Shown here: piece by piece, positions 7,032 through 50,887 of the stretch
Layout: each line of letters starts with the position of its first letter
Numbering within the stretch: position 1 is the first letter of the stretch
Assembly: GCA_046593995.1 (NCBI GenBank)
Contig: JBKJQC010001264.1
Coordinates: forward strand, 1 to 50,887
DNA: 50,887 bases
DNA from: Polyangiales bacterium
Lineage (GTDB): Bacteria; Myxococcota_A; Polyangia; Polyangiales; JADJMO01
Direction of reading: 5' to 3'
Translations under genes and position numbers: made by a program
The notes under the pieces: generated by a model
Told to the model about the DNA's origin: nothing
The model's input: only the letters and a program-made list of their open reading frames with translations
Database searches by the model: none

Positions 7032-7032
7032 G

Positions 7033-7452: not shown

Positions 7453-7457
7453 GGTGA

Positions 7458-7991: not shown

Positions 7992-7993
7992 GG

Positions 7994-16545: not shown

Positions 16546-17733
16546 TCAGAGGACGCCGGCGTTGTGGCGCAGCTTGATGATCCCGGTTTTCTTGCTTCCG
16601 GGCGCGCGCTTGTAGCGGAGCGCCGCGTAGTACAGCCACATCGCCGCGAGGTCGGCGTTGCGCGAGATGTCGACGTCTTCCTTGAGCGTGAGCTCGGCGC
16701 CGTTGAACCAGAACGCGATCGCGCCCTTCTTGCAGATCAGAGAGGTGTACTTGCCGATCGACTTCGCGGTCCACACGTTGTTCACCGCGGCGTTGCCCGC
16801 CGCGATGTTCAGCGTGACGCCCGTGGTCTCGTTCTCGTTGAGCGGGTCGGTGATGAGGATCGTCGCAGCGGTCAGCGTCGCAACGCTGAAGGTGTTCCCG
16901 CCGTCGATCGACCACTTCACCCTCGAGGTGCCGAGCGCACCGAGCACGGTGCACTCGACCCTCAGATCGATCGGCCTGTTCGGCGTGCCGGTGAGGGTGA
17001 TCACCGGCGGCGTGGTCCCGGCCGGGGTCACGGCGCTCATCGCGGAGCCATCGAAGAGCATGCGGTCGCTCTGGATCACCGGGATCCCAGCGAGGCGCGG
17101 GAGCGAACCGCTGACAGCGTCGACCCAAAGCGGGCGACCCGCCGTGTCCTTCGCGCGGCGGAGGTCGCCCATCGTCCGCGAGTGAACGACCAGGCCGGCG
17201 ATGTCTTCGGAGTCGTCACCCCAGAGCTCGGTCCCGTCGCAGAGCAGGTCCCAGTCGAGCACCCGCGGCACGGTCGCCGAGTACTTGTCGACGACGAGCT
17301 GCCCGGTGCCGGACGCCACGGCCGCCGCGATCGCCGCCGAGTCCATCTTCCGACGGACCGAGCGGAGCGTCTGGCGCTTGCCCTCCTCGTAGATGTCCTT
17401 CCCCACGCTCGCCATCTCGGCCCAGCGCGTCGTGTTGAACATCAAGCCGGCAGCAGCGATGGTCGCCTGCTCCTTGCTCTGACCGAACGTCTTCGCCGTG
17501 AGCGCGTCGCCGTCGGCCGCCACGTCCTCGAACTCGCCGATCGAGTCGAAGTACGGGACGTTGATCGTCTCGCCGACGCGGCTTTCACCCGCGGGCATGT
17601 CGGGGCGCACGACGACGACGCCGGCGGCGGCCATCGGGGAATCGATGAACGCGTTCTTGTCCTTCCACGCGCCCTCGAGCGCCTCGTTCCAGTGCTCCGC
17701 GATGACGACGCTCGACTTGGTGACGTTGGCCAT
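16546..17733 (-). CDS. major capsid protein (HK97-fold type) with inserted domain
   Basis: 395 aa. ATG 17733 has CCGGAGA upstream. Follows the protease/scaffold gene. Confidence 0.9.
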   Translation of the reverse strand: MANVTKSSVVIAEHWNEALEGAWKDKNAFIDSPMAAAGVVVVRPDMPAGESRVGETINVPYFDSIGEFEDVAADGDALTAKTFGQSKEQATIAAAGLMFNTTRWAEMASVGKDIYEEGKRQTLRSVRRKMDSAAIAAAVASGTGQLVVDKYSATVPRVLDWDLLCDGTELWGDDSEDIAGLVVHSRTMGDLRRAKDTAGRPLWVDAVSGSLPRLAGIPVIQSDRMLFDGSAMSAVTPAGTTPPVITLTGTPNRPIDLRVECTVLGALGTSRVKWSIDGGNTFSVATLTAATILITDPLNENETTGVTLNIAAGNAAVNNVWTAKSIGKYTSLICKKGAIAFWFNGAELTLKEDVDISRNADLAAMWLYYAALRYKRAPGSKKTGIIKLRHNAGVL

Positions 17734-17868: not shown

Positions 17869-19275
17869 TTACTTGCCCGTGCGGCTCTTGAAGTCGGCCC
17901 GCATCGCTTCGTAGAGATCGGGGTTCTCGGTCTTCAGCGCGGCGCGCTCGCCGGGCGCCATGTCGTCGTACGTCTTGCCCTTGTGCGTCGAGCCGAGCAC
18001 GGTCTTCTGCGACGGCTCTTCGACCTCCTTCGCGATGAGGTGAGGGACGGGTGCGGCGTCCTTCGCGAACTCGCGGAGCTGCTCGAGCGTCATCTTCGAC
18101 GCGAGCTTCTCCATGTGCGCGGTCAGCTTGCCGTCGCCACGCAGCGTCGCGAGGAGCGTCTTGCGGTCGTTCTCCTGGAGCTGACCGAGCGCGGCGGCGA
18201 GATCCTTCTCGAGCTGCTCGACGCGCGCGGCATCCGACTTCGCCGTCTCGATCGCACCGACGGCCTTGATGGTCGACTTCTCGCCGGCGGCCGCGAGGAG
18301 CTCGTCGCGTTCGCCTCGCGCGGTCTCGCGGTCCTTCACCGCAGCGGTGAGGTCCTCCTCCGAGCAATCGGCGCCGAGGCCGCAGATCATCGCGAGGGTC
18401 GTGACGAGGGTGAGCTTCGCGGCCATTTTCGTGCGTGCCTTTCCTGTGCTGCTGCTGCGCGTGCGCTCGACGAGCGCCGCGATGGTGCCTTCGAGCGAGC
18501 CGATCCGATCGACCATGCCCGCCTTGAGCGCCGCCTCGCCGAGGAGGACGCCGCCCTTTCCGAACTTCTCGAGCACGGTGTCGACGTCGGTGTCGCGGTT
18601 GCGGGCGACGGTCGCGACGAAGATGTCCGCCATGGCGTCGACGCGCGCCTGGATGAGCGAGCGGCCGCTCTTCGTCGAGACGTCGGCGCGCTTGTTCGGC
18701 GACTGGCTCGAGACGATCTCGATGTCCTTTGCCGACTCGCCTTCGGGCTTCGACATCGCCATCACCACGCCGATCGAGCCGACGCTGCCGGTGCGGTCGA
18801 TGACGATTTCGTCGGCCGCGGTGGCAATCCAATACGCGGCGCTCGCGCCCATGCCGCCGACATAGGCGACGACCGGCTTCACGCCGCGGGCCTCGAAGAT
18901 CTGCTGCGCGAACTCGTGGATCCCGTTCACCTCGCCGCCAGGGCTGTCGATGTCGAGGAGGATCGAGTCGACGTTCGGATCTTCCAGCGCGGCGCGGAAG
19001 TCGCGGGCCAGGATCTGCACCGACGTCATCGGGCCGCTGATGTCGTCGAACGCGTTCGCGCGTCGGAAGACCGGACCGATCACGGGGATGACCGCGACAC
19101 CGTCGCGGGTCGTGACCGTGCGCGTGTTCTCGAGCGGCCGACCGAGCCGCGCAGCAACGGCCTCCGGACCGTCGCCTTCGCGGTTCGCGATCTCGAGAAT
19201 GGTCGTCAGCGTGTGCGTGTCGAGCGCCCACGCAAGGCTCGCCGCGATCTGGAAGGCCTTGTGCATCGTGGTCAC
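17869..19275 (-). CDS. S49 (SppA/ClpP-like) prohead protease fused to a scaffolding domain
   Basis: 468 aa. GTG 19275 is in a GTGA overlap with the portal stop. Contains LLDIDSPGGEV and GGMGASAAYWIA. The C-terminal ~185 aa are helical and charged, like a scaffold. Confidence 0.9.
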   Translation of the reverse strand: MTTMHKAFQIAASLAWALDTHTLTTILEIANREGDGPEAVAARLGRPLENTRTVTTRDGVAVIPVIGPVFRRANAFDDISGPMTSVQILARDFRAALEDPNVDSILLDIDSPGGEVNGIHEFAQQIFEARGVKPVVAYVGGMGASAAYWIATAADEIVIDRTGSVGSIGVVMAMSKPEGESAKDIEIVSSQSPNKRADVSTKSGRSLIQARVDAMADIFVATVARNRDTDVDTVLEKFGKGGVLLGEAALKAGMVDRIGSLEGTIAALVERTRSSSTGKARTKMAAKLTLVTTLAMICGLGADCSEEDLTAAVKDRETARGERDELLAAAGEKSTIKAVGAIETAKSDAARVEQLEKDLAAALGQLQENDRKTLLATLRGDGKLTAHMEKLASKMTLEQLREFAKDAAPVPHLIAKEVEEPSQKTVLGSTHKGKTYDDMAPGERAALKTENPDLYEAMRADFKSRTGK

Positions 19276-20561
19276 CCTTCGGTCTCGTCGTCTTCGCCGT
19301 CGTCGTGAGCGGGCACGGGGGCCGGCTCGTCAGGCTGCGCCGTCTCGTGCTCGTCCTCGCTGGGAGACGGCTCGGGCGCCGGTGTCGACGTGACCGAGAT
19401 CTCGTCGCCGCCGTCCACCTTCGCGTAGCCGTGGCGCTCACGCGCCTCGTTCAGCGAGATGATGCCCGCCTGCTTCAACATCGATGTCGCCTGTGCCCGC
19501 GTCTGCTCGACCGCCGCGGCACCGCGCTTGTCTTCGAGGGTGGACGTGTCCCGGACGGGCCACGGCGCGGCAGCGCGTGATCCGAAGTTCGACTCCGCCC
19601 AAGGCGCGAGCACCTGGTCGTGCGCCATCGTCGACGTCGTTTCGTTGTCCGACTTCGTTTTGCCGAGCGCGACGTCCTTGTGAATCGCGGCCGCTCCCTG
19701 ATTGCCGGTGGCCCCCGCCATCGTGGTCAGGTTCTGCCCAAGGATGGCCACCGCGTAGCCGTTGTCCGCGGCATCGATCTGCGCCTTGAACGTCTCCCAG
19801 TTGCGGGCCGTGCTCTCGAGGAGCTTCAGGTCCATGCCGGCGGGGAGCGGCACGACGGCCTTGCGACCGAGGTTCCGGAGGTCCGTGGCGATCTGCGCGC
19901 GCTCCGGCTTTCCGGTCGGGACGCCGGTCGCGACGAGGATGCCGTGCCCCTTCGTCTCGCTGTGCGCCGGCCAGTCGGTGAGCGCGTAGGCCTTCAGCAA
20001 TGCCCACCGCGAGAGCGCGCGCCAGGCGCCGAACGCCCACGGGCGCGAGACACCGTATGGCGTGTAGAGCACCCACTCGCCGGTGCCGGTGATTACCGGC
20101 GTCTTCTTTCCGTCCTGACCGATGAACAACCACCGCTGGTTGTCGTCGTCCCACTCGAGGTTCCGCGGGTTCTTCGTTACGAGGCGCGGGATGTCGCGAC
20201 CGGCCGCGTTGATCGTCCAGAGGAGCTGCGCGACGCCGACGCCGAGCACGAGCCCCCACATGTGCAGGCGCTTGAACTCCGTATCGTCGAAGATCGACCA
20301 GTAGTCTTCCTTCGCTTCGAGCTGTCGGATCGCTCGCTTGCTGCGCCCCTCGAAGGTGAGCGGCAGACCGAGCAGCGTGTCCGTCCGCGTGTCGAGGACC
20401 GCCTTGATTCGGTCGTCCCCGATCATCGTCTCGCAGAGCTCGCCGGCGAGACGCAGGTGTCCGCCATCGGCGGAGACCTCCGCTGCTCGCAGGAGCGCCG
20501 GCGTCCACTGGATGTGCGACCGCGAACGCGGCTCGATGACTTCGATCGCGCGTGCGGCCAT
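19272..20561 (-). CDS. portal protein (Mu gp29/DUF935-like)
   Basis: 429 aa, directly downstream of terL, with an acidic C-terminus. Confidence 0.85.
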   Translation of the reverse strand: MAARAIEVIEPRSRSHIQWTPALLRAAEVSADGGHLRLAGELCETMIGDDRIKAVLDTRTDTLLGLPLTFEGRSKRAIRQLEAKEDYWSIFDDTEFKRLHMWGLVLGVGVAQLLWTINAAGRDIPRLVTKNPRNLEWDDDNQRWLFIGQDGKKTPVITGTGEWVLYTPYGVSRPWAFGAWRALSRWALLKAYALTDWPAHSETKGHGILVATGVPTGKPERAQIATDLRNLGRKAVVPLPAGMDLKLLESTARNWETFKAQIDAADNGYAVAILGQNLTTMAGATGNQGAAAIHKDVALGKTKSDNETTSTMAHDQVLAPWAESNFGSRAAAPWPVRDTSTLEDKRGAAAVEQTRAQATSMLKQAGIISLNEARERHGYAKVDGGDEISVTSTPAPEPSPSEDEHETAQPDEPAPVPAHDDGEDDETEG

Positions 20562-20576: not shown

Positions 20577-22028
20577 CTATCGGTTGCCCCACGTGCCGAG
20601 CAGTGAGGAGTCCCAGCCGGTGCCGTCACCCGTCGTCGACGTGTCGGGCGCCGTCTCGAAGGTCGAGAGCGCGAGCGCGTCGGCGTGGTCAGGGGAACGG
20701 CCGAGCCGCGCAACGAGGTCGCGCTTGCTCTCGAGCCGGATGCGCAGGCGCGCGTCGGTGTCCTGCTTGATGCTCGTGAGCTGCGTCTGCAGCTCGGAGC
20801 TCGGAGGTAGCGCGCCTGTCGGAAGCCACTCCTTGAGCGAGCCGTAGACCTCTGCTCGCCGGTCCACGAAGTTCGGGTGCGTGCTCTTGTCTTGTGACAT
20901 CAGCTCGACGATCCCGACCGTGATGCCGTTCGGGAACTCGGCGCGCTTCAGCACGTCCGCGACGCCGTTGTTGTTCGTCTGATCGATCTTCGCTCTGACG
21001 TACTCGCCCGGCCGCGCGTGCTCGACGATCAAGCGCAGGACCCTGTTGGCGACCTGCACGTTGTCGTGCTTCTTCAGCTCGACGAGCCGCACCCAGTTGC
21101 CGCGTCGCACTGCGATGACCGTGCTGTCGTCGCCGCCACGCGCAGGGTCGACTCCGAGGCGGAGAGGCTCGGCCAGGTCCTGCGATGAGGGCTCCTCGGT
21201 CCACCTCTCCTGCGCGGCCGCGACCATCTGCAGCGAGAGGAACGCGTGCTCGTCCTGCGCGCAGAACTCGCCGAGGATCTTCACCTGGAAGTCCCAGCTC
21301 TTCTCGCCCCAGTCCGCGCGCTTCTCCGCGATGTACGAGGGGAGCGCGAGCCCGGGGACGTACCGCTCGCCCGTGACGTTCGGCGACGCGGTGCTCGGGA
21401 TGTGCACTCCCTTCCAGGAGCGCGCCTCCGTGTGGAACGCGTCGTAGAACTTCCCGTGCGTGCGCGTCGGGTTTCCCGCGAGCACGATCTTGCCGCCGCC
21501 TGCGCGGTTGCCGTCGAGCGCGCGGATGATCGTGTCCGGGATGCCGGGCGCCTCGTCGAGGACGAAGGCCTGGTCCTCGCCTGAGTGCCCGAGGAACTTC
21601 TCGGTCTGCCGGCCACCGCCGTCGGCGGAGAAGCCGAAGATGCGGCGCCGAGGCGACCAGACGATCCCGGACTGCGTGTCGAGGTGAGGCTCACCCCCGA
21701 GCGGGTAGCGCGCCTCCTCGCGCATGCGGAGCATCTCCGCATACACGCCCGTCTTCCCTTGCAGGTCCGACGGCAGACAGAAGATGACCTTGCCGAGGGG
21801 TCGCGTGCACACCCACCAGAGAGAGAAGACGGCGAGGCCGGCGGTCTTGCTCACCTTCTGGCCGGCGCGGCACGCGACACGGTCGTGGTCGCGGATGGCG
21901 TGCAGGAACTCCCGGTACTTCGACCAGGGTGCGATTCCGAGGACGTGCTCTCCGAAGCCGACGGGGTCGTGACGGAAGTGACGGAAGGCGTCGAGCTCGA
22001 GATCGTGCGCGTCGGTGACGGCGTTCAT
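20577..22028 (-). CDS. terL: terminase large subunit
   Basis: 483 aa from MNAVTDAHDL; ATG 22028 is in an ATGA overlap with the terS stop. Walker-A-like RAGQKVSKT, Walker B AFVLDEAPG, nuclease segment LGVDPARGGDDSTVIAV. Confidence 0.9.
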   Translation of the reverse strand: MNAVTDAHDLELDAFRHFRHDPVGFGEHVLGIAPWSKYREFLHAIRDHDRVACRAGQKVSKTAGLAVFSLWWVCTRPLGKVIFCLPSDLQGKTGVYAEMLRMREEARYPLGGEPHLDTQSGIVWSPRRRIFGFSADGGGRQTEKFLGHSGEDQAFVLDEAPGIPDTIIRALDGNRAGGGKIVLAGNPTRTHGKFYDAFHTEARSWKGVHIPSTASPNVTGERYVPGLALPSYIAEKRADWGEKSWDFQVKILGEFCAQDEHAFLSLQMVAAAQERWTEEPSSQDLAEPLRLGVDPARGGDDSTVIAVRRGNWVRLVELKKHDNVQVANRVLRLIVEHARPGEYVRAKIDQTNNNGVADVLKRAEFPNGITVGIVELMSQDKSTHPNFVDRRAEVYGSLKEWLPTGALPPSSELQTQLTSIKQDTDARLRIRLESKRDLVARLGRSPDHADALALSTFETAPDTSTTGDGTGWDSSLLGTWGNR

Positions 22029-22693
22029 GCGGAGCTCGCGGCGGCCAGGGCGTCGAGCGCCGCGACGAGCGGTCGGCCGAGCGCGGCCCGCCGCGACGTC
22101 GAGACAGTGGCCAGGGCGTCGGCCACCTCGAGGAGGTCGGCGAGTACTCGAGGCACCGCGACCGTGAGCCACGTCTCCGGAGCGTCGGCCCGAAGCTCCT
22201 TGTCCTTCGCGTAGGCGGCCGACATGACGTCAGCGAGCCCGGTCTTCGTGCCCTCTCGCTTCCGCTCTGCGGAGGCCAGGGCCTCGGTCGTCTTCAGGAC
22301 CGTGGCGAGCGTGCCGAGGGATCGGAGGTAGGCCTGCGCGTTGCCGGCCTGCGCGAACCGACCAGCGACCTCGGCGAGCTTCAGGGCCTCGCGCTTCAGG
22401 AGCTCGCCGGCGGTGAGGCCTTCGTCCTTCACCGGCTCGATGGAGGCCAGCGGCGTCGAGAGCGACGCGGACCGCTCCATGAACTTCAGCACCGCAACAT
22501 GCGAGAGCGGCGGAGCAAGTCGGTGTTCCTTGGATACCAGCGCAGCGATCTCGCGCGCCGGCCGGCCGTCCTTCCCGAGCCGCGTGATGGATGCGCCGAT
22601 CTTCTCGGTGATGCGGCCCTTCAGCGAGCGCGCAGGCCGCGTTTCCTTGGCCTTCGGGCGGGGCTTGGTACGTACCCGCTTGGTTTTGGCCAT
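22025..22693 (-). CDS. terS: terminase small subunit candidate (basic N-terminus plus HTH)
   Basis: 222 aa, first gene of the late operon, overlapping the terL start. Contains MAKTKRVRTKPRPKAKE... and GRPAREIAALVSKEH. Confidence 0.65.
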   Translation of the reverse strand: MAKTKRVRTKPRPKAKETRPARSLKGRITEKIGASITRLGKDGRPAREIAALVSKEHRLAPPLSHVAVLKFMERSASLSTPLASIEPVKDEGLTAGELLKREALKLAEVAGRFAQAGNAQAYLRSLGTLATVLKTTEALASAERKREGTKTGLADVMSAAYAKDKELRADAPETWLTVAVPRVLADLLEVADALATVSTSRRAALGRPLVAALDALAAASSA

Positions 22694-33527: not shown

Positions 33528-34382
33528 TCAGTCGTTCGTGCCGGTGCCGGGCTTCTTGATCGAGATCGCTACGACGTTGAACATGTCGGGCTGCGTCGGC
33601 GGTTTCGGCTGGCGATCCGACGCGATGTCGCGTGCCGTCAGCAGCATGCTCGCGAGCTTGCGCGTCGCCTCGCCCTCCGCTCCACCGACAGGAAGCAGTC
33701 CCCACGCGCGGAACGAATGGCCGACCGCGTCGCGCAGTTCGCGCTCGCCCTTCTTGTGCCGCGACTTCCATGTCGGCACCGTCCGAGGTTCGCCGGTCCA
33801 GAGGTCTGCGTACTCGCGCAGCTGGCTGCGGATCGCGTTCGCTCCCGCACGGCCGATGACGCCACCGAACGTGGACGGCTGCGCCGCGAACTTCTTGTCG
33901 ATCGCGTCGAGCATGCGAAGTTCCAGCGACGCCTCGCGACGCTCGGCACGCTCCTCCATCGCGAGCATTGCTGTCGCGAATCGGTCGAACGCGGCGCCGA
34001 TCATCAGCGTGACGTGCGACGCGTCTGGATCCTGATCGCGTCGACCGAAGAAGTGGACCGCGAGCGCGTCGGCGCACTCGTTCTGGTAGCGCTCCAACTT
34101 CGGACGAACGGCAGGGGCGACGCGCGACGCCTCGATCGTCGCGAGCCACATCGGCAGCGACTTGAGGTCGATGCAGAACGTGTCTTGCAATCGGCCAGCG
34201 TCGTCACGAACAGAGACCATCTCTGTTCGTGCCCACGCCTTGGATCCGAGCTTCACGCGCTGACCATCAGCGTTGACACCGAGCACCTCGCACACGCGCT
34301 TGATCGGGACGAGCACGCGACCGCTCGCATCGCGAGCGGCGAGCAGTTCGTCACCGTGGAAGTTCACCTTCACGAGATCCAT
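33528..34382 (-). CDS. phage antirepressor (Ant/P22 AR N-terminal-type)
   Basis: ATG 34382 (MDLVKVNFHGDELLAARDASGRVLVPIKRVCEVLGV...); track GTG 34409 is an alternative. Lies downstream of the cro-like gene. Confidence 0.75.
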   Translation of the reverse strand: MDLVKVNFHGDELLAARDASGRVLVPIKRVCEVLGVNADGQRVKLGSKAWARTEMVSVRDDAGRLQDTFCIDLKSLPMWLATIEASRVAPAVRPKLERYQNECADALAVHFFGRRDQDPDASHVTLMIGAAFDRFATAMLAMEERAERREASLELRMLDAIDKKFAAQPSTFGGVIGRAGANAIRSQLREYADLWTGEPRTVPTWKSRHKKGERELRDAVGHSFRAWGLLPVGGAEGEATRKLASMLLTARDIASDRQPKPPTQPDMFNVVAISIKKPGTGTND

Positions 34383-34442
34383 CACCGACACCTCTCTCTC
34401 GTGCGCCACTGCAAACCCCGGCGCGCGTGCGGGGAGAGCGGG

Positions 34443-34721
34443 TCAGGTGCCGGTGGGGCGCTCGGCGGGGACGTCGGCGACCGTCTCACGCGGGAGCGAT
34501 GCGATCTCGTCGGCGGTGAGCCAGTCCTCGATCGCGATTCCGAATCGACGGTGCAGGTACTCCACCTCGACGAGCCCAGGCGTGCGCTCGCGGGTGAGCC
34601 AACGCGACACGAGTCCGCGCGCGACGCCCATCTCCTGTTCGAGCAGGTACTTTCGAATGCCTGAGGACGAGATCGCCTCGGCTAGCAGTTCAGGCCCGCG
34701 CCCCGCGGATCGCTTCGGCAT
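34443..34721 (-). CDS. Cro-like XRE-family HTH regulator
   Basis: 92 aa with HTH LLEQEMGVARGLVSRWLTRERTPG. Divergent from the CI-like gene. Its ATG lies only 6 nt from the predicted -10. Confidence 0.8.
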   Translation of the reverse strand: MPKRSAGRGPELLAEAISSSGIRKYLLEQEMGVARGLVSRWLTRERTPGLVEVEYLHRRFGIAIEDWLTADEIASLPRETVADVPAERPTGT

Positions 34722-34727
34722 GCCGGC

Positions 34728-34756
34728 ATCTTGTGACGCTCGTCAGATTCTGTCAA
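34728..34756 (-). promoter_or_regulatory. leftward early promoter (-35 TTGACA, 17-nt spacer, -10 CAAGAT)
   Basis: The minus strand reads TTGACA GAATCTGACGAGCGTCA CAAGAT GCCGGC ATG. The operator palindrome fills the spacer. Confidence 0.5.
34733..34746. promoter_or_regulatory. operator O1, GTGAC-GCTC-GTCAG
   Basis: Inverted repeat TGACG..CGTCA inside the leftward promoter spacer. Confidence 0.5.
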
Positions 34757-34788
34757 GTGTCACACGCTCGACGCGCGTTCCGAGTCCT

Positions 34789-34802
34789 CTGACACTCGTC
34801 AG
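34789..34802. promoter_or_regulatory. operator O2, CTGAC-ACTC-GTCAG
   Basis: Perfect 5-bp arms ending 2 nt before the GTG of the CI-like gene. Same consensus as O1. Confidence 0.5.
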
Positions 34803-34803
34803 G

Positions 34804-35424
34804 GTGTCGAACCGAACGCCGACCACGGTCGAGGAATTGCGCGAAAAGCTCGCCGCGGCCGACGTGACCGAGGAGATGCGAGAGGTCGTCGAGCGACTGT
34901 TCCGCGCCGTGCATCACGCGATGAACCTGCGCGGCGTAAAGATGTACCGACTTGAGGAAGAGGGTAGCGAGTCAGGCAAGGGTCGAGGTCACCTCACGCG
35001 CGTCTTCGCTGGCGAGCGAGCCGATCTTGAAGTGATGACGCTCAAGAGGTACGCGCGAGCGTGCGGTGTGCGCGAGGCTTGGCTTGTCAGCGGCGATGGC
35101 CTGATGCTCGATGCGCCGACCCGCACCGTCGAACTGAACGCGCGCTACCCGCACCTTGCCGCAGCGGTTCGCGTCGCTGAGCTTGAAGGGGTCGACCCAA
35201 GTGTCCTCGAGACCGTTCAGCGCGACGCCCTCAAGTCGTCCGACGATCCCTTGCCGTCGGTGTGGATCAAGCGGATCGACGGCGAGGCCAACTACCAGCG
35301 TCGGCGCGCGATGGAGGATCCCGACGTCGATGCCGCGAAGGTCGAGCGCGATCGACTCCGAGCACTGGACGAAGAAAAGACGAGCAAACCGAACCTGACG
35401 AAGAAACCGAAGGGGAAGAAGTGA
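34804..35424 (+). CDS. CI-like repressor (XRE HTH, no S24 peptidase domain)
   Basis: GTG 34804 is the first start where G/C3 becomes coding-like. HTH MTLKRYARACGVREAWLVSG, basic C-terminus. The upstream 177 aa of the track ORF are antisense shadow. Confidence 0.75.
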   Translation: MSNRTPTTVEELREKLAAADVTEEMREVVERLFRAVHHAMNLRGVKMYRLEEEGSESGKGRGHLTRVFAGERADLEVMTLKRYARACGVREAWLVSGDGLMLDAPTRTVELNARYPHLAAAVRVAELEGVDPSVLETVQRDALKSSDDPLPSVWIKRIDGEANYQRRRAMEDPDVDAAKVERDRLRALDEEKTSKPNLTKKPKGKK

Positions 35425-36014
35425 TGCGCGCGATCGTCCTGGTCGCGGTCGTGGCGATCGGATGTACGAAGCCGAAGCGCTCCGACGACCTCGCGGCGCC
35501 AACCGAACCAGTTGCGACTGTCGACCCGAACATGGGGAAGCATGCCGCATGGCTGAAAGCGTCGATCGCGAATCCTGAGACGCCGGAAGCTGGGCTCACG
35601 TCGAAGGACAAGTCGAGCGATCACTACGAGTTCAGCCTAAAGCACGACGGGTGCGCCGTACGACTGACGTACGACACCGCCAAGTGGGCATCGTATCGGG
35701 TGGCGGCGGAATACGAGGAACGTTGCCGACCCGAGGTGATGGTCGGTCTCCTTGTGCAAGAGGGCGAACCGATCACGTACCCGATGCCAAAAATCTTCCA
35801 CGTGAAGTGGTACCGGGTGACCGCTGGGCCGATGGCTGGTCACGTCGTTGGGGTCGACTACGATCGGTTCAAGAAGCCAACGGCGTGGCGGATGATGTCC
35901 GAGGCTTGGGTATGCCGCGAGAAGCACGGCAACGAGCACCTGACCGCGCGCGTGCAGCACGTGATGTCGAAGAAGCCGTGCAACGACTACAAGGGCAACG
36001 ACGCTTCCAAGTAG
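35424..36014 (+). CDS. lipoprotein (superinfection-exclusion candidate)
   Basis: ATG 35424 overlaps the repressor stop (TGATG). Signal peptide and lipobox MRAIVLVAVVAIGC. 196 aa. Confidence 0.8.
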   Translation: MRAIVLVAVVAIGCTKPKRSDDLAAPTEPVATVDPNMGKHAAWLKASIANPETPEAGLTSKDKSSDHYEFSLKHDGCAVRLTYDTAKWASYRVAAEYEERCRPEVMVGLLVQEGEPITYPMPKIFHVKWYRVTAGPMAGHVVGVDYDRFKKPTAWRMMSEAWVCREKHGNEHLTARVQHVMSKKPCNDYKGNDASK

Positions 36015-37723: not shown

Positions 37724-38145
37724 GCGCGCGAGTGGCTCTCCACCACCTGCACAGCCTCCTCGCCGACCTCGCGCCGGACGCGATCCAGACCGTCGCCCAG
37801 CCCGAAGCGAACCTTCGCGCGCTCGTCCTGCTCTACCTCCGCGCGTCGGACGCGTTCGCCAGCGGCCCAAGACTCGCCGTCGACGAGGCTGCGTGGCAGG
37901 CCGGCTTCGCGATGATGGCCGCCGCGAAGCGCGCGCTCTGCCACTACTGCGTGGACCACGGTGCGCCCGCCGGCGTCGAGCCGCGCGTCGTCGAGGCCGT
38001 CAACGACATCGCGGCGACCTGGGTCGCGGTCGAGGTCCGTGATCGGATGTCGATGCCGGACGTGCGCCGCGACGCGATCGAGTCGTCGCTCTTCGGGCCG
38101 CTGGTGCGCGGGATCGACGTGCTCACGTCCTGGGTGCGCGCGTGA
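37720..38145 (+). CDS. hypothetical protein
   Basis: GTG 37720 is in a GTGA overlap. 141 aa: VSARVALHHLHSLLADLAPD... The upstream part of the track ORF is shadow. Confidence 0.65.
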   Translation: MSARVALHHLHSLLADLAPDAIQTVAQPEANLRALVLLYLRASDAFASGPRLAVDEAAWQAGFAMMAAAKRALCHYCVDHGAPAGVEPRVVEAVNDIAATWVAVEVRDRMSMPDVRRDAIESSLFGPLVRGIDVLTSWVRA

Positions 38146-38261
38146 TCCGCCTCGTCATCGGGACCTACTCCCGCGGGACGTGGCGCGTGCGCGTGAACGG
38201 CGTCATCGGCGAGGGTCGATCGATCGCTCAGGCGATGGAATCAGCGGAGGCAGGCCAGTGA
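38142..38261 (+). CDS. micro-ORF (39 aa)
   Basis: GTGA overlaps at both ends. Reads VIRLVIGTYSRGTWRVRVNGVIGEGRSIAQAMESAEAGQ. Confidence 0.4.
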   Translation: MIRLVIGTYSRGTWRVRVNGVIGEGRSIAQAMESAEAGQ

Positions 38262-39361
38262 GCCGGCTCGATCGCGCGATCGCCGCGCTTCCCAGCGACA
38301 TGGACCCGTTCGAGCACGCCCGCGCGCGCGCGATGCTGAACGCGTACGTCGGCTTCTGGGACGCCGAGGACTGCGAAGTCCTCGCGGTCGAACGCGAGTT
38401 CTTCGCCGACCTGACGCGCCCCGACGGCACGGTCGACCCCGACTGGCTCCTCGGCGGCAAGATCGATCTCGCGCTCCGCTGGCGTGGGCGTGTTCGCCTG
38501 TTCGACCACAAGACCTCGAGCGAGGACGTGAGCCCCGGCTCGACGTTCCGCGGTCGTCTGACGCTCAATTCACAGGCGTCGCAGTACATGATCGGCGGTC
38601 GCGCCATCGGCATCGACGCGGAGGACTTCGTGTTCGACGTCCTCGGGAAGCCCGGGATCGATCCGGCGAAGGCAACGCCGGCAGAGAAGCGCCAGTACGT
38701 GATCCGCGAGGGGCAGACGGCGGCTGCGAAAGCCATCGTCGCGGCCCTCCACCCCGACTCGAAGTGGGGCGACCTCCCGCAGCTGGACAAGGCGACGCTC
38801 GCGATCGCGAACCCGACGGTGTTCCGGCTCCATGCCGACCACCGCGAGCGCGACGAGTACCCGGCGGAGTTCTTCGCGCGGTGTTGCGAGAAGATCGCCG
38901 AGAACCTCGATCGCTACATCGCGCAGATCGACATCACGCGCACGGAGGACGAGCTCGCGGAGTACATGCGGACGCTGTACGTCGACTCGACGCTCATCGA
39001 CACGGTGCGCGAGTTCGGCCTCGTGTCTCGCAACGAGGGGTCGTGTTTCCAGTTCGGCGGCCGCCCCTGCGACTACCACCCGGTCTGCTCGGCGACGGCG
39101 AGCATCGACGACGCGACGAAGTACGTCCGTCGCGGCGCGCACGAGGAGCTCGTGCACGCGCCTCCGCCCGGCAAGCGCCTGCTGACCGTGTCGCGCCGCG
39201 CCTCGTTCAACAGCTGCCGGCAGCGACACGACTACCGCTACGAGCGCGGCATCGCGGCGGTCGAGCGCGCCGACGTCCTCGCGTTTGGCACCGCGGTGCA
39301 CACGGCCGTCGAAGCGTACTGGCTCGCGCGTACGCCGGAGAGCGTGCGCCGGGCCGCCTGA
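38258..39361 (+). CDS. PD-(D/E)XK Cas4/RecB-like exonuclease
   Basis: 367 aa from VSRLDRAIAAL. Contains GGKIDLAL...LFDHKTS, plus an N-terminal Cys and a C-terminal CFQFGGRPCDYHPVC (4-Cys cluster pattern). Confidence 0.8.
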   Translation: MSRLDRAIAALPSDMDPFEHARARAMLNAYVGFWDAEDCEVLAVEREFFADLTRPDGTVDPDWLLGGKIDLALRWRGRVRLFDHKTSSEDVSPGSTFRGRLTLNSQASQYMIGGRAIGIDAEDFVFDVLGKPGIDPAKATPAEKRQYVIREGQTAAAKAIVAALHPDSKWGDLPQLDKATLAIANPTVFRLHADHRERDEYPAEFFARCCEKIAENLDRYIAQIDITRTEDELAEYMRTLYVDSTLIDTVREFGLVSRNEGSCFQFGGRPCDYHPVCSATASIDDATKYVRRGAHEELVHAPPPGKRLLTVSRRASFNSCRQRHDYRYERGIAAVERADVLAFGTAVHTAVEAYWLARTPESVRRAA

Positions 39362-39404
39362 TTTGGAGTGAGTGAGTCCGAACGTCGAACAGAAGGAGAT
39401 CGCA

Positions 39405-40400
39405 ATGGCAGCAGTGGCAGTGGCAGGAAACGGAGTCGTCCGCGCGGGCAGCGTGCTCGGACACGTGAAGGTCGGACGCGTCGAGAAGTCCCCGCGCGTG
39501 CTCCTCTACTCGAGGGAGAAGATCGGCAAGACCGGTTTTGCGGCCGGCTCGCCGTCGCCGATCTTCCTCTGCTCGGAGCTCGGCACTGAGGAGTACGACG
39601 TCGCGCGCATCGCGATCACCGACTGGACGCAGTGCACGACGGTCGTCGACGCGCTGACGACTGAGCCCCACGGATACAAGACGCTCGTAATCGACACGCT
39701 CGATCACCTCGAAGCGGTGCTGCATCGCTACATCCTCGCGAACGACCCGAAGGGCGCGTCGTCGATGGTGACCGCGGCGGGCGGCTACGGAAAGGCGTTC
39801 AAGATCGCGACCGAGGCGATGCGCAAGCTCGCGTCGAAGCTCGACATCATCACCGAGAGACGCGGGATGAACGTGGTGCTGCTCGCGCACGCGCACATCA
39901 AGAAGTTCAACGACCCGCAGTCGGACGGCTGGGACCAGTACCGCCTGAAGATGCACGAGGAGGTCGCCGGCTTCTGGCGCGAGTGGGTCGACGCGGTCCT
40001 CTTCGCAAACCTCGATATCGCGGTGAAGGAAGACCCGAACGACCGTACCCGCGCGACCGGCACCGGCGATCGCTACATCTACACCACACCCCCGCGCGAC
40101 GCCGCGTTCGAGGCCGGCAACCGCTTCGCGCTGCCTCCGAAGATCAAGCTGCGCTGGTCCGCGTTCGAGGAAGCGCTTCGCGCGAGCAACGCGCTCCGTG
40201 TCGAGCTCGGACAGCTCGTCCCCAAGCTCCCCTCGGACAAGCGCGCAGCAGCGCAGCAGAAAGCCATCGAAGCGAAGGACTTCGATGCGCTGAAAGACAT
40301 CGTCGAGAAGGCACGCGCGCACGTCGCGACGCCGAGCACCACCACCACCACCGCACCCACCACCGTCACCAGCAACGAGCAGAAAGAGCAGAGCAAATGA
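39405..40400 (+). CDS. Sak4-like AAA_24 ATPase (recombinase family)
   Basis: ATG 39405 with GAAGGAGAT upstream. Contains LLYSREKIGKTGF and VIDTLDHLE, with a Thr-rich tail. Confidence 0.8.
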   Translation: MAAVAVAGNGVVRAGSVLGHVKVGRVEKSPRVLLYSREKIGKTGFAAGSPSPIFLCSELGTEEYDVARIAITDWTQCTTVVDALTTEPHGYKTLVIDTLDHLEAVLHRYILANDPKGASSMVTAAGGYGKAFKIATEAMRKLASKLDIITERRGMNVVLLAHAHIKKFNDPQSDGWDQYRLKMHEEVAGFWREWVDAVLFANLDIAVKEDPNDRTRATGTGDRYIYTTPPRDAAFEAGNRFALPPKIKLRWSAFEEALRASNALRVELGQLVPKLPSDKRAAAQQKAIEAKDFDALKDIVEKARAHVATPSTTTTTAPTTVTSNEQKEQSK

Positions 40401-43838: not shown

Positions 43839-44203
43839 GCGCCTTTGCTCGTGAGTTGATCGAGGAGTTCCGTCGCGCCTTGCGTGAGGACCCGACCTTC
43901 GCGCGCGAGCTCCGCGACATGCTCGGCGCCCCTGCTCCCGTCGGCGGCGATCCGACCGACCCGGTTGCGAAGCCGCTCGCCGCGCGACTGCTCGGGATCC
44001 ATCAGACGACGCTCGACCGCGCCGTGCGCCACGGATGCCCAGTGACGCGCTTCAACGGACGTAAGCGGTTCGACATGGCCGCCGTCCGCGAGTGGTTCGC
44101 GGCGCAGAAGTCGAAGAGGGCGCCGTCCGCGACCACGCCAGACAACGACCCGATCAACGTCGACCACGTGGTGCGCCAGCTCGGAATGCGTCGGAGGGCC
44201 TGA
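43835..44203 (+). CDS. xis: excisionase-type HTH protein
   Basis: GTG 43835 with AAGGAG upstream. Contains LLGIHQTTLDRAVRHGCPVTRFNGRKRFDMAAVREWF. Immediately upstream of int. Confidence 0.7.
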   Translation: MSAFARELIEEFRRALREDPTFARELRDMLGAPAPVGGDPTDPVAKPLAARLLGIHQTTLDRAVRHGCPVTRFNGRKRFDMAAVREWFAAQKSKRAPSATTPDNDPINVDHVVRQLGMRRRA

Positions 44204-44205
44204 CC

Positions 44206-45687
44206 GTGCCGAACGAGCGAACGGGTACGATCGAGTGGAAGCGAGGCGTGGCCTACGCCCGCGTGTGGCTCGACCGCCCGGACGGCACGAAGCAGCGTAA
44301 GCGCGTGAAGCTCGGCACCCGTGACCCGAAGGTCGCCGAGCGGATGCTCGCGAAGGTCAACGGCATGATCGCGCGCGGCGATCTCGTCGCCGACGACGGC
44401 GCGGTGGAGGCTGGGCCCGACGAGTTCCGCGCGTTCGCCGAGCAGTGGGTGACGAACCGGAAGACGCGGAAGGTCGCGATGGCTCCCGACGAGCACATCA
44501 ACCTGAGGCGGCACGTGTACGAGGTGCAGACCGAGGGACGCGCGTTCGGGACGATGTGCCTGATCGACGTGCGCCCGCGCCACATCGTCGCGGTCCTGCA
44601 GGCGGTGATCGACGAGGGGCTGGCCAAGGGCACGGTCGACCACGTGAAGCGGCTGCTCTCCCGCATCTTCCGCGCGGCTGTCGGGAAGGACCTGATCCTC
44701 GCGAACCCCGTCACGGCCGCGGACACCCCCCGGATCCCGGACGCCCAGAAGACCGAGAAGGAGCGCGAGATCCTCACGGACGCCGAGGTCGCGCAGTTCC
44801 TCGAGTGCGGAAAGGTCGACCTCGAGCTCCGCATGATGTCGCTCGTCGCGCGCACGCTCGGTGGCGGGCGCACGAGCGACGTGAACCGCTGGGCCTGGAC
44901 GCACATCGACACGCGCACGTTCGAGGTGTGCACCATCCCACGGAGCAAGACCGGCAAGCCGCAGCGCATCGAGATCCCTGAGATGCTTCGCCCGTTCCTT
45001 GCCGCGTGGTGGATCGGCGCAGGCAAGCCGGCAGGCGGCCCCGTGTTCCCGGTGACGAGGGGGAAGCGGAAGGGCGAGTTCCGCGCCACCCGCGGCGTGA
45101 GCTACGCGAAGCGCCTGCGACGCGCGCTGAAGGTCGCCGGCGTCTTCCGCACCGAGCTCCACCAGGAGACGGAGACGACGCTCCCCGTCGACTTCCACTC
45201 GTTCCGGCGCGCGTTCGCCACGGCGCTCGCCGAGGCTGGGGTCAATGAGCAGAAGGCGATGGCTCTCGCCTCGCACTCAGACCCGAAGACCCACCAGCGC
45301 TACGTGATGAAGACGCGCGCCATGATGCGGATTCCGGCCGCCGCGCTCCCGTCCTTCAATGGCGGGACCGAGAACGATGAGGCCCCCGCGGGGGACAGTT
45401 CCGCAGAGGCCTCGCCGCAAACCGCTTTATTCGGAGCGGGAAACGGGATTCGAACCCGCGACCCTCAGCTTGGGAAGCTGGATAGCGCTTCGGATCGCTC
45501 GGGAAAGCTCGACGATCGAGGCTTCACCCTACCACGGCGGGTGCCGTTCGGGGACGCGTGCTTCACGTGGCTTCGGTGCGATGGGTCCCCGCTGTCCCCA
45601 TGGGACGCCGTCCGAGGACCAGCGTTTGAGCTACGGCGCGGCCGCGTGATTCATATCGTCGAAGAGCGGCTTGGAGGCCTGACATGA
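44206..45687 (+). CDS. int: tyrosine integrase; ORF continues through the att core
   Basis: GTG 44206. AP2-like arm-binding N-terminus (GTIEWKRGVAYARVWLDRPDGTKQRKRV). Catalytic motifs GGGRTSD, HSFRRAFATAL and ASHSDPKTHQRYV (Tyr codon at 45301-45303). Confidence 0.9.
   Translation: MPNERTGTIEWKRGVAYARVWLDRPDGTKQRKRVKLGTRDPKVAERMLAKVNGMIARGDLVADDGAVEAGPDEFRAFAEQWVTNRKTRKVAMAPDEHINLRRHVYEVQTEGRAFGTMCLIDVRPRHIVAVLQAVIDEGLAKGTVDHVKRLLSRIFRAAVGKDLILANPVTAADTPRIPDAQKTEKEREILTDAEVAQFLECGKVDLELRMMSLVARTLGGGRTSDVNRWAWTHIDTRTFEVCTIPRSKTGKPQRIEIPEMLRPFLAAWWIGAGKPAGGPVFPVTRGKRKGEFRATRGVSYAKRLRRALKVAGVFRTELHQETETTLPVDFHSFRRAFATALAEAGVNEQKAMALASHSDPKTHQRYVMKTRAMMRIPAAALPSFNGGTENDEAPAGDSSAEASPQTALFGAGNGIRTRDPQLGKLDSASDRSGKLDDRGFTLPRRVPFGDACFTWLRCDGSPLSPWDAVRGPAFELRRGRVIHIVEERLGGLT
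45433..45481 (-). other. attP-like core: 3-prime ~49 nt of a tRNA-Gly(CCC) gene (not a complete tRNA)
   Basis: The minus strand reads CCAGC TTCCCAA GCTGA GGGTC GCGGG TTCGAAT CCCGT TTCCCGC T CC. The upstream sequence has no GCGGGAA acceptor strand and no D-arm. Confidence 0.7.
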
Positions 45688-45960
45688 CCACTCCCGTCAG
45701 TGCGCCACGCCCGGTGCAGAAGTGCGCTTGCGGCGCGGACTGCGGTCATCACGTTTCGCAACGTGCGGGTCATCCGCATCACGACCTACGCGAAGGTGAG
45801 GGCGACATGACGGATTCGGTCAGTGCGGTCGACCTCATTCCGCCGGGGTCGTTCAGCGACTGGCGCAAGGCCGGCGTGCCCGTGCGGGAGGGGCACCAGT
45901 GAGCGTGGTCCACCTGTCGACGATCCCTTTCCGCGCGTGCCCGCAGCATCTGCCGAAATA

Positions 45961-45999
45961 ACGAAAACCCCGGCCCCACCCTTGCGGGCAGGACCGGGG
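45961..45999 (-). terminator. rho-independent terminator of the minus-strand lysis/late transcript
   Basis: The minus strand reads CCCCGGTCCTGCCCGCAAGGGTGGGGCCGGGG followed by TTTTCGTTATTT, about 130 nt after the stop at 46129. Confidence 0.55.
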
Positions 46000-46128
46000 C
46001 TACGTCCGCGCGCGCGGAGGGAGGAACGCGCACGCTGGATCTGTCAGCACTCCGGCCGCGGCATCGTCGTCGCGAGCCACCAACACAACCGGTCGGCCAT
46101 CTCCTCGGAGACCTCGCACTCGATGGTG

Positions 46129-46614
46129 TCATTCGCCCCCGTCGCGCCGACGGCGTGGTGGCGGGTGGTCCGAGTCCGGAGGATCCTCGCGCGGCACGCC
46201 GAGCGCGGGCCGACGCTGCGCTGCCGGTGGCGGGAGCTGCTCGGACCAGCCGATCGCGGGATGCGAGCCGGTGCGTTCGTTCACGACGTCGCCAACGATC
46301 GCCGCGATGCTGCGGCGCACGCCCTCGGCAATCGGGCGTTCCTGCGAGCCGTGCGCCTCGAGCCCGCGCTGGATGCCGGCGACGCGCACGGCCAGAGCCG
46401 CGACCGCGCTCTCGATCTGGTCGGTGCGGTTCGCGATGCCGAGTCGGATCTTGCTGTCCCGCTGCTCGTCGGGGTCGCCGTTTACCGCGCGATGTAGCGC
46501 GGGAATCTTGCCGACGTCATCGACGCGGCGAAACGCCCAGTAGGCTGCGCCAGCCGCGGCGCTGAGAGCTCCGCACACTACGATCAGGGTCGAGAGGTCG
46601 ATCGTGATCTGCAT
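46129..46614 (-). CDS. N-terminally anchored membrane protein (holin or i-spanin candidate)
   Basis: ATG 46614. MQITIDLSTLIVVCGALSAAAGAAYWAF, then a helical soluble part. Last gene of the lysis block. Confidence 0.7.
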   Translation of the reverse strand: MQITIDLSTLIVVCGALSAAAGAAYWAFRRVDDVGKIPALHRAVNGDPDEQRDSKIRLGIANRTDQIESAVAALAVRVAGIQRGLEAHGSQERPIAEGVRRSIAAIVGDVVNERTGSHPAIGWSEQLPPPAAQRRPALGVPREDPPDSDHPPPRRRRDGGE

Positions 46615-46702
46615 GGATTCTCTCGGCGTGGGCAACGGTGGCGACGGAAGCCGCGTACACGCACGCGGCAGACAATTGGAGCGCGGCGTCGACGATGGTC
46701 AT
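46517..46702 (-). CDS. possible small TM peptide coupled to the endolysin stop (only the first ~28 codons look coding)
   Basis: ATGA overlap at 46699-46702. Reads MTIVDAALQLSAACVYAASVATVAHAE. G/C3 collapses where the next gene starts. Confidence 0.3.
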   Translation of the reverse strand: MTIVDAALQLSAACVYAASVATVAHAERIHADHDRPLDPDRSVRSSQRRGWRSLLGVSPRR

Positions 46703-47568
46703 GCGATGGGATCCTCGTCGGTCTTGATCGTGTGCTCGCCCTCGGGGACCTCGATGCCCACCGGGCCTTCGAACGTGCCGAGCGGCTCGCGGACCGCGCG
46801 CATGCTCTGCGAGCTCCGCGTGCGCGCCTGCGTGGTGTCCGGCAGCGTGTCGGGGATGGGGGTCGCGTCGTCGTCGCGCAGGCATCGCGCGTAGCCGTCG
46901 GCCGTCGCAACGTTGTAGTCCGCGTCCACGCCGTTCGGGAGCACGCATCCGCCGTCGCCGTCGAACTGCCACACCCACTCGGGAATGCCGCGCGAGCGCC
47001 ACGGATAGGGCAGCCTGGCGGTCGGCAGCGTCGGCGGCGAAGAGGCGCACGTGGTGCGGTCGGCGAGCGCGACCCGCGGGTACTGCGAGTGCCACAGGCC
47101 GTAGCTCACGAGCTCGTCTACCAGCTCGCGGGACACGAGCCGGTCGAAGTCCCGGTCGGCGGCGACGAGCTGTGCGACGTACCAGTCGCCGGTGTAGACC
47201 AGCGCGTCGCCAAGCAGATGGCGCGCACGGCGGAGCGCTTTCAACGCGTGGAGGACGAGCGCCTCCCCGCTGTGCTTCGTCGACGGCTCCTCCCAGTCGA
47301 TCGCCGCGTGGAGCTCGCCGCGGTCGCCGGCGGCGTCGAGCGTGCGCGCGAGGTGCTCGGCCTGCAGCGTGGGATCCGAGTCGGTCAGCCAGTGGTAGGC
47401 GCCGCGCGGGATGTGACCGCGGCTGGCGGTCCAGTTCTGCGAGAACCGCGGATCGAGCCCGAGCCCGTGCGTCGCCTTGATCCACGCGTACATGGCGCCC
47501 GAGCGCGCGACGTCGGCCCAGGGGACGACCGCCTGCCAGCGGGACACGTCGATGCCGATGAGGCTCAC
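46699..47568 (-). CDS. GH25 muramidase endolysin with unassigned C-terminal domain
   Basis: GTG 47568 is in a GTGA overlap. Contains IGIDVSRWQ, GAYHWL and AAIDWEEP. 289 aa. The upstream 97 aa of the track ORF are shadow. Confidence 0.9.
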   Translation of the reverse strand: MSLIGIDVSRWQAVVPWADVARSGAMYAWIKATHGLGLDPRFSQNWTASRGHIPRGAYHWLTDSDPTLQAEHLARTLDAAGDRGELHAAIDWEEPSTKHSGEALVLHALKALRRARHLLGDALVYTGDWYVAQLVAADRDFDRLVSRELVDELVSYGLWHSQYPRVALADRTTCASSPPTLPTARLPYPWRSRGIPEWVWQFDGDGGCVLPNGVDADYNVATADGYARCLRDDDATPIPDTLPDTTQARTRSSQSMRAVREPLGTFEGPVGIEVPEGEHTIKTDEDPIA

Positions 47569-47852
47569 GGCGTCACCTCCGGGAGATCGACGGTGGTCCC
47601 CGCGAGCGGGTGCGTGCAGTCCGAGAGGAACTGGATGCGGCCGTCGGTCACGAACGAGTGGCAGACCATCGGTCGCACGGACGCTGCGCGCGCTTCGTCG
47701 GTCTCCGCGTCGAGGTCCCAGTCCTTCCACCGCACGAGGATCGACGGCGTGAACGTGGGGCGGTCGAACGAGCCGTTGAATCCCCACGCGCGAGGGCCGG
47801 TGACGGGCAGCACGTGGTGGTCGCCGCATCCGGGGCAGTCGATGCGGACCAT
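47565..47852 (-). CDS. DUF6527-like Cys-rich protein
   Basis: ATG 47852. Reads MVRIDCPGCGDHHVLPV...PTFTPSILV...CHSFVTDGRIQFLSDCTH. Confidence 0.7.
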   Translation of the reverse strand: MVRIDCPGCGDHHVLPVTGPRAWGFNGSFDRPTFTPSILVRWKDWDLDAETDEARAASVRPMVCHSFVTDGRIQFLSDCTHPLAGTTVDLPEVTP

Positions 47853-47887
47853 GTCGCAATCGCCGCCCACGACTCGCTTCGCCCGGC

Positions 47888-50742: not shown

Positions 50743-50887
50743 TCAGTCCTCGTCGATCGTGAGCGCCGACGCGGGGATCGTGAGCGTGCCGCCGATGTTC
50801 ACGACCTGGCGGTAGCTCTTCGCGACGCGCATGAGGCCGGTGCCGTCGGTCGTCAGGTCGATCGCCACGCCGCCCGCGGTGGCCGCG
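50743..50887 (-). CDS. C-terminal end of a virion protein (ORF enters from the right edge)
   Basis: Reads ...AATAGGVAIDLTTDGTGLMRVAKSYRQVVNIGGTLTIPASALTIDED, with a stop at 50743-50745. Confidence 0.6.
   Translation of the reverse strand, partial: AATAGGVAIDLTTDGTGLMRVAKSYRQVVNIGGTLTIPASALTIDED

Follow-up and report, generated by a model that had tools for sequence, protein, structure and literature searches.

In the myxophage Mx8, the phage attachment site (attP) is located within the integrase gene, and integration creates a new 3' end of int that modifies rather than inactivates the enzyme (PMC6070905). Mx9, which has one int gene but two bacterial attachment sites (attB), works on a comparable principle (PMC6070905). 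In SSV-type ('suicidal') archaeal integrases, attP also lies inside the integrase open reading frame (ORF) (PMC7253208; PMC4383910) and integration splits the gene in two (PMC7253208). More generally, elements that target tRNA genes leave the Islander signature, i.e. a tRNA gene (tDNA) together with a displaced 3' tDNA fragment. Here, we analyse a contig of 50,887 nucleotides assigned to a Polyangiales bacterium (JBKJQC010001264.1; hereafter the window, at its full length), which is a phage genome of 50.9 kb with 68% GC, very probably that of a temperate phage. At 45433-45480, inside its integrase gene, the window holds an antisense 3' fragment of tRNA-Gly(CCC), and this fragment is very probably the core of the phage attP (Table 1).

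The fragment lies on the minus strand and matches bacterial tRNA-Gly(CCC) genes at every position from 28 to 75, giving 48 nt, a count that takes in two G at 45433-45434 matching the CC of an encoded CCA. Read from 45480, it contains the 5' strand of the anticodon stem with four of its five bases, the loop TTCCCAA with the anticodon CCC (plus-strand GGG at 45472-45474) and the 3' strand of the stem, followed by the variable loop GGGTC, the T-arm GCGGG-TTCGAAT-CCCGT (45443-45459), the acceptor 3' strand TTCCCGC, the discriminator T and then CC. A first-pass annotation of this DNA had recognised the same tRNA part from the anticodon arm to the acceptor strand but let it begin at 45481; the tRNA identity stops at 45480 (tRNA position 28), and base 45481 would make a C27-A43 mismatch. 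To the right of the core the window continues with GATAGCGCTTCGG, which is unrelated to the tRNA 5' half, and the 5' acceptor strand and D-arm are not present beside the core. The view that the fragment is no complete tRNA is borne out by the ARAGORN run that the first-pass annotation had suggested, which calls zero tRNAs in the whole window, and by the Rfam tRNA model, which yields only a partial match of 16 bits in this region versus a gathering score of 29; a complete tRNA at the core is ruled out by these two results. The core is single-copy in the window and occurs in none of 100 shuffles, and sequence matching it is annotated as tRNA-Gly in other records. The 3' tRNA-Gly(CCC) fragment is real and well beyond chance.

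At least 118 species-representative genomes, spread over several phyla, contain the exact 46-mer at 45435-45480, and complete tRNA-Gly(CCC) genes are called by ARAGORN at genome loci bearing it. Among the matches listed, 117 of 118 loci continue rightward with the tRNA 5' half, ATGCTCTACC..GAGCTAyTCCCGC, corresponding to the D-arm and the 5' acceptor strand. Two occurrences lie outside this pattern of intact genes. On the contig of a Deltaproteobacteria metagenome-assembled genome (L046, 2498-2543), the exact 46-nt core lacks the tRNA 5' half, and no family integrase is encoded within 8 kb of it; this copy may represent the distal junction of another integrated element, with its displaced fragment. 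The unrelated Bacteroides phage BS-TP2 (PQ571275.1, 5885-5930) carries the same tRNA-Gly piece with 95.7% identity over 46 nt, annotated as 'hypothetical protein', which may be another attP covered by an ORF.

The gene that reads through the core encodes a lambda-type tyrosine integrase (Int). The NCBI-derived protein P0001 (493 amino acids) shares its stop and puts the GTG start at 44206. Pfam identifies the domains Phage_integrase (PF00589, E = 3.9e-11) and Phage_int_M. A 30-sequence alignment shows no variation at R222, K248, H331, R334 and Y366, and H357 is kept in at least 90% of the sequences, i.e. the C-terminal catalytic domain holds the R-K-H-R-H-Y set of tyrosine recombinases. In an AlphaFold2 (AF2) model, residues 1 to ~390 are confident and the folded part ends ~25 residues past the catalytic Tyr. 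The top Foldseek matches of this model are full-length lambda Int chains (E = 4e-13, 374-404 aligned columns), and residues 8-57 form a three-stranded sheet and a helix, a region in which Pfam gives no arm-domain match. As modelled, Int likely has three domains between residue 1 and residue ~390: an arm-binding-like N-domain, followed by a core-binding and a catalytic domain. The core is located antisense in the int frame, 130 nt past the catalytic Tyr codon, and the frame stays open to its TGA, both as described in the first-pass annotation. In addition, a perfect 12-nt palindrome, CCCCCGCGGGGG, is found at 45383-45394, ~40 nt left of the core; GGGGGAC at this site is invariant in four relatives and encodes the conserved PAGD. 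Either a motif of the protein or a site on the DNA may underlie the palindrome.

The arrangement, with a putative att core inside the int ORF and 3' of the catalytic Tyr codon, is that of Mx8, and the likeness in geometry drawn in the first-pass annotation is confirmed by the Mx8 record. In D86464, intP spans 1154-2755 and the annotated recombination core 2387-2415; this core, read antisense, corresponds to the T-arm and acceptor end of a tRNA, and 113 codons separate it from the intP stop. Both phages hence share an int ORF that runs antisense through a 3' tRNA fragment, and a long tail past it (113 codons in Mx8 versus 69, with the stop, in the window phage); genome size (~50 kb) and GC (68%) are similar as well. 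In contrast, Int is only a distant homologue of IntP, the two being 25% identical across 284 residues in the N-terminal part (pairwise E = 6e-12), and the Mx8 core of 29 bp covers the T-arm and acceptor end, whereas the 48-bp core of the window phage extends into the anticodon stem of tRNA-Gly(CCC). We take the Mx8 core to originate from a tRNA-Asp gene. A functional effect of the tail swap is demonstrated in Mx8 only. Mx9 is said to have been described by Julien in 2003 with attP within int and attB in tRNA-Gly genes; neither the Int protein nor the core matched an Mx9 record in the phage collection. In this collection, only Mx8 and one virus match Int at E 1e-5 or better. No deposited phage is a close relative of the window phage, as none has a terminase with more than 31% identity to its own.

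As in generic tRNA-targeting elements, the window has a 3' tDNA fragment beside int, consisting of the 3' part of the tRNA without its 5' part, and the modelled Int would adopt the lambda-Int-like three-domain fold of the lambda/P4-type enzymes. In those elements, however, the fragment mostly resides in non-coding DNA beside int, while here the int ORF covers it. The site also differs from the SSV type: because the fold is complete by about residue 390 and the core follows 130 nt past the Tyr codon, the catalytic fold would stay whole and only the post-catalytic tail would be exchanged, so that Int does not qualify as a suicidal integrase.

The surroundings of the core agree with an attP. The flanks are those named in the first-pass annotation, with an xis-like helix-turn-helix (HTH) gene and int on the left, and a minus-strand terminator hairpin followed by a GH25 endolysin gene on the right. 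The right flank is phage DNA, since the GH25 endolysin is encoded there, and no host genes abut the core. With a tRNA read on the minus strand, the int-proximal junction of a single prophage must carry a complete tRNA, in which the core is joined to a 5' half from the host; in the window, int is followed by a fragment only, which is the arrangement of attP and not of a phage/host junction, as had been proposed. The contrast with the integrated relatives L122 and L123, described below, points the same way.

Relatives display both the free and the integrated state. A search of 5.8 billion proteins returned 226 Int homologues at E 1e-10 or better, with lengths of 301-799 amino acids and strikingly variable C-terminal tails. 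In L124 (P0003; Int 57% identical to the window Int in a full-length alignment and 65% in the best local alignment), the identical 46-nt core (9231-9276) has the same right boundary and lies inside int, flanked left and right by phage genes; no tRNA is reported there by ARAGORN. L121 (P0008) has a 44-nt version of the core inside int, again between phage genes. At 7238-7313 of L121, over the attP fragment, ARAGORN reports a 'tRNA-Gly(CCC)' with its anticodon at the odd position 36, and Rfam gives nothing at the gathering score; this call is probably spurious and liable to mislead annotation pipelines. The closest relative, L119 (P0002; Int 66% identical in the full-length alignment), has a core with two mismatches, both T-loop changes, and its int stop TGA falls exactly on the left edge of the core, so that P0002 has no tail. 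Immediately right of the L119 attP, in the region 6142-10292, genes for a UvrD-type helicase and an AAA_15/AAA_21 ATPase form a Gabija-like pair, which may be defence cargo beside the attachment site. A four-way DNA alignment of the attP regions reveals that the core alone is conserved and that the flanks diverge. In three relatives, the stretch identical to the tRNA spans everything between the anticodon stem, including its 5' strand, and the tRNA 3' end; in L121 it reaches position 30. Conversely, in L122 (P0024) and L123 (P0079), int reads through a complete tRNA-Gly(CCC) called by ARAGORN, ...GIRTRDPQLGKLMLYQLSYSR..., with ordinary cellular genes beyond, and in L136 (P0045), a chromosomal copy, int ends inside a complete tRNA-Val. 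Free (L124, L121 and L119) and integrated (L122 and L123) states are thereby both seen. The first-pass annotation had named a native int stop upstream of 45433 as evidence that would contradict it; no such stop exists in the window, but that of the closest homologue, P0002, sits at the core edge, and read-through of the core by int is not universal in the lineage.

A tRNA piece in or beside the int tail is not confined to these loci. Exactly one strict T-arm per whole locus, always antisense and in or abutting the int tail, is detected at 14 of 17 int loci including Mx8. A tRNA-derived peptide motif is present in the tails of 97 of 120 homologues, a figure that is indicative only, as the catalytic box GGMRTxD matches the same pattern. 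Antisense to the tRNA, none of the three frames is closed by a stop within the core, and relatives use all three, giving GIRTRDPQLGK, KRDSNPRPSAWEA and ETGFEPATLSLGS; the core peptide is therefore not under protein-level selection. Beyond the core, P0003-P0006 and P0008 return to a common end motif, (S/T)FxELxDxxLxLGGxS, despite differing core frames, and at least 11 other relatives share a ~50-residue module ending NVVxL...R.KR beyond different cores, with the helical-looking consensus ..AL..A...AGRFD.V..LA.EL..RRLAR..NVV.L...R.KR. The relatives with a tail module are P0003-P0006 and P0008 (L124, L121), P0020, P0039, P0050, P0063, P0086, P0094 and P0118, as well as L128 and L132-L134; in L132-L134 the ~50-residue module is present without a detectable T-arm.

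Several observations weigh against the segment being the core of a working attP in this phage. An integrated copy of the window phage or of a near-identical relative was not found, both junction 25-mers having zero matches in the metagenome and viral collections, and integrated junctions (attL and attR) are seen only in the relatives L122 and L123, whose Int is 41-43% identical. Intact tRNA-Gly(CCC) genes matching the core, which the first-pass annotation had proposed to look for in candidate hosts, do exist in the genomes described above, but none of the 118 listed tRNA-Gly loci has a family integrase nearby. Nor can the host be named from the core, because the 46-mer is identical in Bacteroidota, Rhodothermales, Myxococcota, Anaeromyxobacter, Acidobacteriota and others. 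Around the core no arm-type repeats stand out, the largest 9-mer family having four copies versus 4-7 in shuffles. No terminal repeat, as a sign of circularity, was found in the contig. A minus-strand ORF across the joined ends (1-223 + 50853-50887; 86 codons, hydrophobic stretch) has a GC content at third codon positions (GC3) of 0.85, and reaches only 11 codons past the junction into the far end; a circular or circularly permuted contig is weakly supported.

Other origins of the fragment were weighed against an attP core. The order of int followed by a fragment only would also be produced at the junction of a tandem array at one tRNA-Gly gene, where the int of an element B, the fragment and the right arm of an element A meet and no free attP is present; 125 of 3919 Islander islands occur in tandems of two or more (PMC4383910), and GC is slightly higher right of 46 kb (0.71-0.72). 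We nevertheless regard this as improbable, as the contig is a single phage-sized unit in which the minus-strand late operon leaves the window start and resumes at the window end, with one core copy and no host genes, and as L124 and L121 have the same layout inside contiguous phage operons. The missing integrated copy, at the listed tRNA-Gly loci and in the metagenome and viral collections, would fit a relic, i.e. a phage that no longer integrates and a tRNA-like piece decaying in a drifting ORF. This explanation, to which we give equally little credit, is at odds with the match of 48 out of 48 bases to living tRNA-Gly(CCC) genes while the flanks diverge among relatives, and with the intact catalytic residues and the presence of the xis-like gene. 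Hardly conceivable is a functional phage-encoded tRNA or tRNA-like RNA antisense to int: ARAGORN does report a 'tRNA-Gly' at the equivalent place in L121, but none in the window, Rfam finds nothing at the gathering score in the window region or in L121, and the 5' acceptor strand and D-arm are both missing. An attP core thus remains by far the most probable identity of 45433-45480.

Starting from an attP core, we propose that integration operates as follows. Int would recombine the phage core with its exact counterpart in a tRNA-Gly(CCC) gene of the host. The Islander scheme classifies crossover subsites within tRNA genes (PMC4383910), and the identity block of the core begins in the anticodon stem, which corresponds to subsite 'A'; strand exchange would most likely take place in the anticodon-loop region, a crossover position deduced from this class. 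An intact tRNA-Gly would be restored beside int, and the displaced 3' fragment would be left at the other end of the prophage. As the first stop of the int ORF is at 45685, the final 68 codons would be cut off from int in the prophage (45481..45687, 68 codons and the stop) and would move to the far end of the prophage, and as the core is identical in phage and host, Int would change only past 45480. The replacement of the Int C-terminus foreseen in the first-pass annotation follows from this geometry, with 68 codons and the stop exchanged instead of 70-85 codons. Residues 426-493 (DSASD...LGGLT) would give way to MLYQLSYSR and further host-encoded residues up to the first stop, read antisense through the tRNA 5' half. 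In the integrated relatives, the int ORF does read into the tRNA 5' half.

Since the target is tRNA-Gly(CCC) 28-75, the attB can be spelled out, and so can the junctions and the hybrid Int predicted for the prophage. The predicted attL consists of ...AACCGCTTTATTCGG, the core and ATGCTCTACCAACTGAGCTAyTCCCGC, and the predicted attR of host DNA downstream of tRNA-Gly, the core and GATAGCGCTTCGGATC.... In candidate hosts with at least 64% GC, the predicted hybrid tail is 16-307 codons long. We infer that the host is a high-GC bacterium, possibly a member of the Myxococcota.

The significance of the tail itself was assessed separately. Stop codons make up 1.4% per codon over all frames of this 68% GC genome, and the chance of meeting none is P = 0.31 over 85 codons and P = 0.17 over 128 codons. 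GC3 is 0.68 in the tail vs 0.92 in the int body, Pfam has no match in the tail, and in the AF2 model the predicted local distance difference test (pLDDT) score is <50 for residues 401-464 and 466-493, with tail block means of 31-48 and no secondary structure. The tail matches neither conserved module of the relatives, and six-frame scans are also negative. A hidden Markov model (HMM) built from the tails of five relatives gives no score for the window tail, and for the small ORF at 45684-45902 it gives -0.7 bits, which is equalled or beaten by 469 of 1000 shuffles. In our reading, the window tail is a tolerated read-through of the att region and not a conserved regulatory domain.

Alternatively, the 68-residue tail may work in the phage form of Int, with its removal altering activity or specificity and stabilising lysogeny, i.e. 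a functional switch of the Mx8 type. Precedent is provided by Mx8, in which integration gives int a new 3' end and modifies the behaviour of the integrase (PMC6070905), and support comes from the several relatives that keep C-terminal modules beyond differing cores, some of them changing frame yet regaining the end motif; these modules suggest that, across the family as a whole, a tail can have a function, and speak against a mere read-through. In the window, the small ORF on the int stop (ATGA, with GGAGG upstream) suggests that ribosomes get to 45687. We consider a switch in this phage possible but doubtful, as its tail is without either conserved module, weak in codon-position bias, free of Pfam domains and modelled as disordered, as the int of the closest relative ends ahead of the core, and as an equally long open frame is expected by chance in 17-31% of cases. 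Tolerated read-through consequently remains our preferred account of the window tail.

Other features of the phage genome are collected in Table 1. The xis-like gene has a counterpart in the relative L121, where the equivalent gene ahead of int bears the PF12728 HTH_17 domain. The small ORF that overlaps the int stop has no PHROG or Pfam match and no homologue, and L124 shares the overlap of the int stop with the next start. A 24-nt direct repeat, 79% identical, is found at 45681-45704 and 45804-45827 and nowhere else in the window; both copies hold an ATG preceded by a Shine-Dalgarno-like run, and the first ATG overlaps the int stop and opens the 72-residue ORF. Further away, the product of a minus-strand gene at 33528-34409 has the N-terminal domain of the P22 antirepressor (E = 6e-27); this gene adjoins the lowest-GC stretch, 34001-36000 (0.64 vs ~0.68 elsewhere).

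Table 1. Features of the window around the putative attP and in the remainder of the phage genome
Feature	Position	Strand	Remarks
attP core (very probable)	45433..45480	minus	48 nt = tRNA-Gly(CCC) 28-75; plus strand encodes Int residues ~410-425 (GAGNGIRTRDPQLGKL)
Anticodon stem-loop part of core	45465..45480	minus	loop TTGGGAA 45470-45476; predicted strand-exchange region, from class 'A' tRNA sublocation
int	44206..45687	plus	lambda-type tyrosine integrase ORF, 493 amino acids; GTG start, TGA stop 45685-45687
Catalytic Tyr codon TAC (Y366)	45301..45303	plus	invariant column, 30-sequence alignment
Int C-terminal tail	45481..45687	plus	68 codons + stop; past core
xis-like HTH gene	43841..44203 (start approximate, stop 44201-44203)	plus	PHROG 66 'excisionase and transcriptional regulator', E = 8e-7
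Small ORF, 72 amino acids	45684..45902	plus	ATGA overlap with int stop; GGAGG 7 nt upstream
Intrinsic-terminator-like hairpin	45966..46001	minus	16 pairs + T-run; ends late/lysis operon converging on int
Membrane-protein-like ORF	46129-46635	minus	right of core
GH25 endolysin	46699..47859	minus	Pfam Glyco_hydro_25 E = 2e-16; PHROG endolysin families
Tail-fibre-like genes	717-2958	minus	profile matches
Major capsid protein	16546-17733	minus	profile matches
Portal	19272-20561	minus	profile matches
Large terminase	20577-22172	minus	profile matches
Exonuclease	37961-39361	plus	profile matches
Sak4-like annealing protein	39372-40400	plus	profile matches

In conclusion, our data support that the window phage is a new, distantly related case of the known Mx8-type attP within int, targeting tRNA-Gly(CCC), a result that is confirmatory and not surprising. 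It provides a clean, sequence-defined attP for an uncultured high-GC phage, with positions 28-75 of tRNA-Gly(CCC) as the target, and bears on prophage-boundary software and on the choice of integrase/attP cassettes as genetic tools. It also bears on the annotation of integrases, where variable 'C-terminal domains' can in truth be tRNA genes in translation. A more interesting lead than the window phage alone is the pattern in the wider family: with the tail covering or abutting an antisense tRNA piece at 14 of 17 related loci, the peculiarity of Mx8, an integrase rewriting its own C-terminus, is no one-off. We tentatively raise the possibility, which we would not yet favour, that in this large, mostly metagenomic, high-GC integrase family antisense read-through of the att core is a selected trait, as the conserved post-core modules might suggest (the ~50-residue helical one ending NVVxL...R.KR and another ending SFDELMDxxLxLGGxS), and that the window phage carries a lineage-specific tail. 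If true, each integration would reversibly remove a working integrase domain, and the switch from IntP to IntX would be a general, Mx8-like property of the family.

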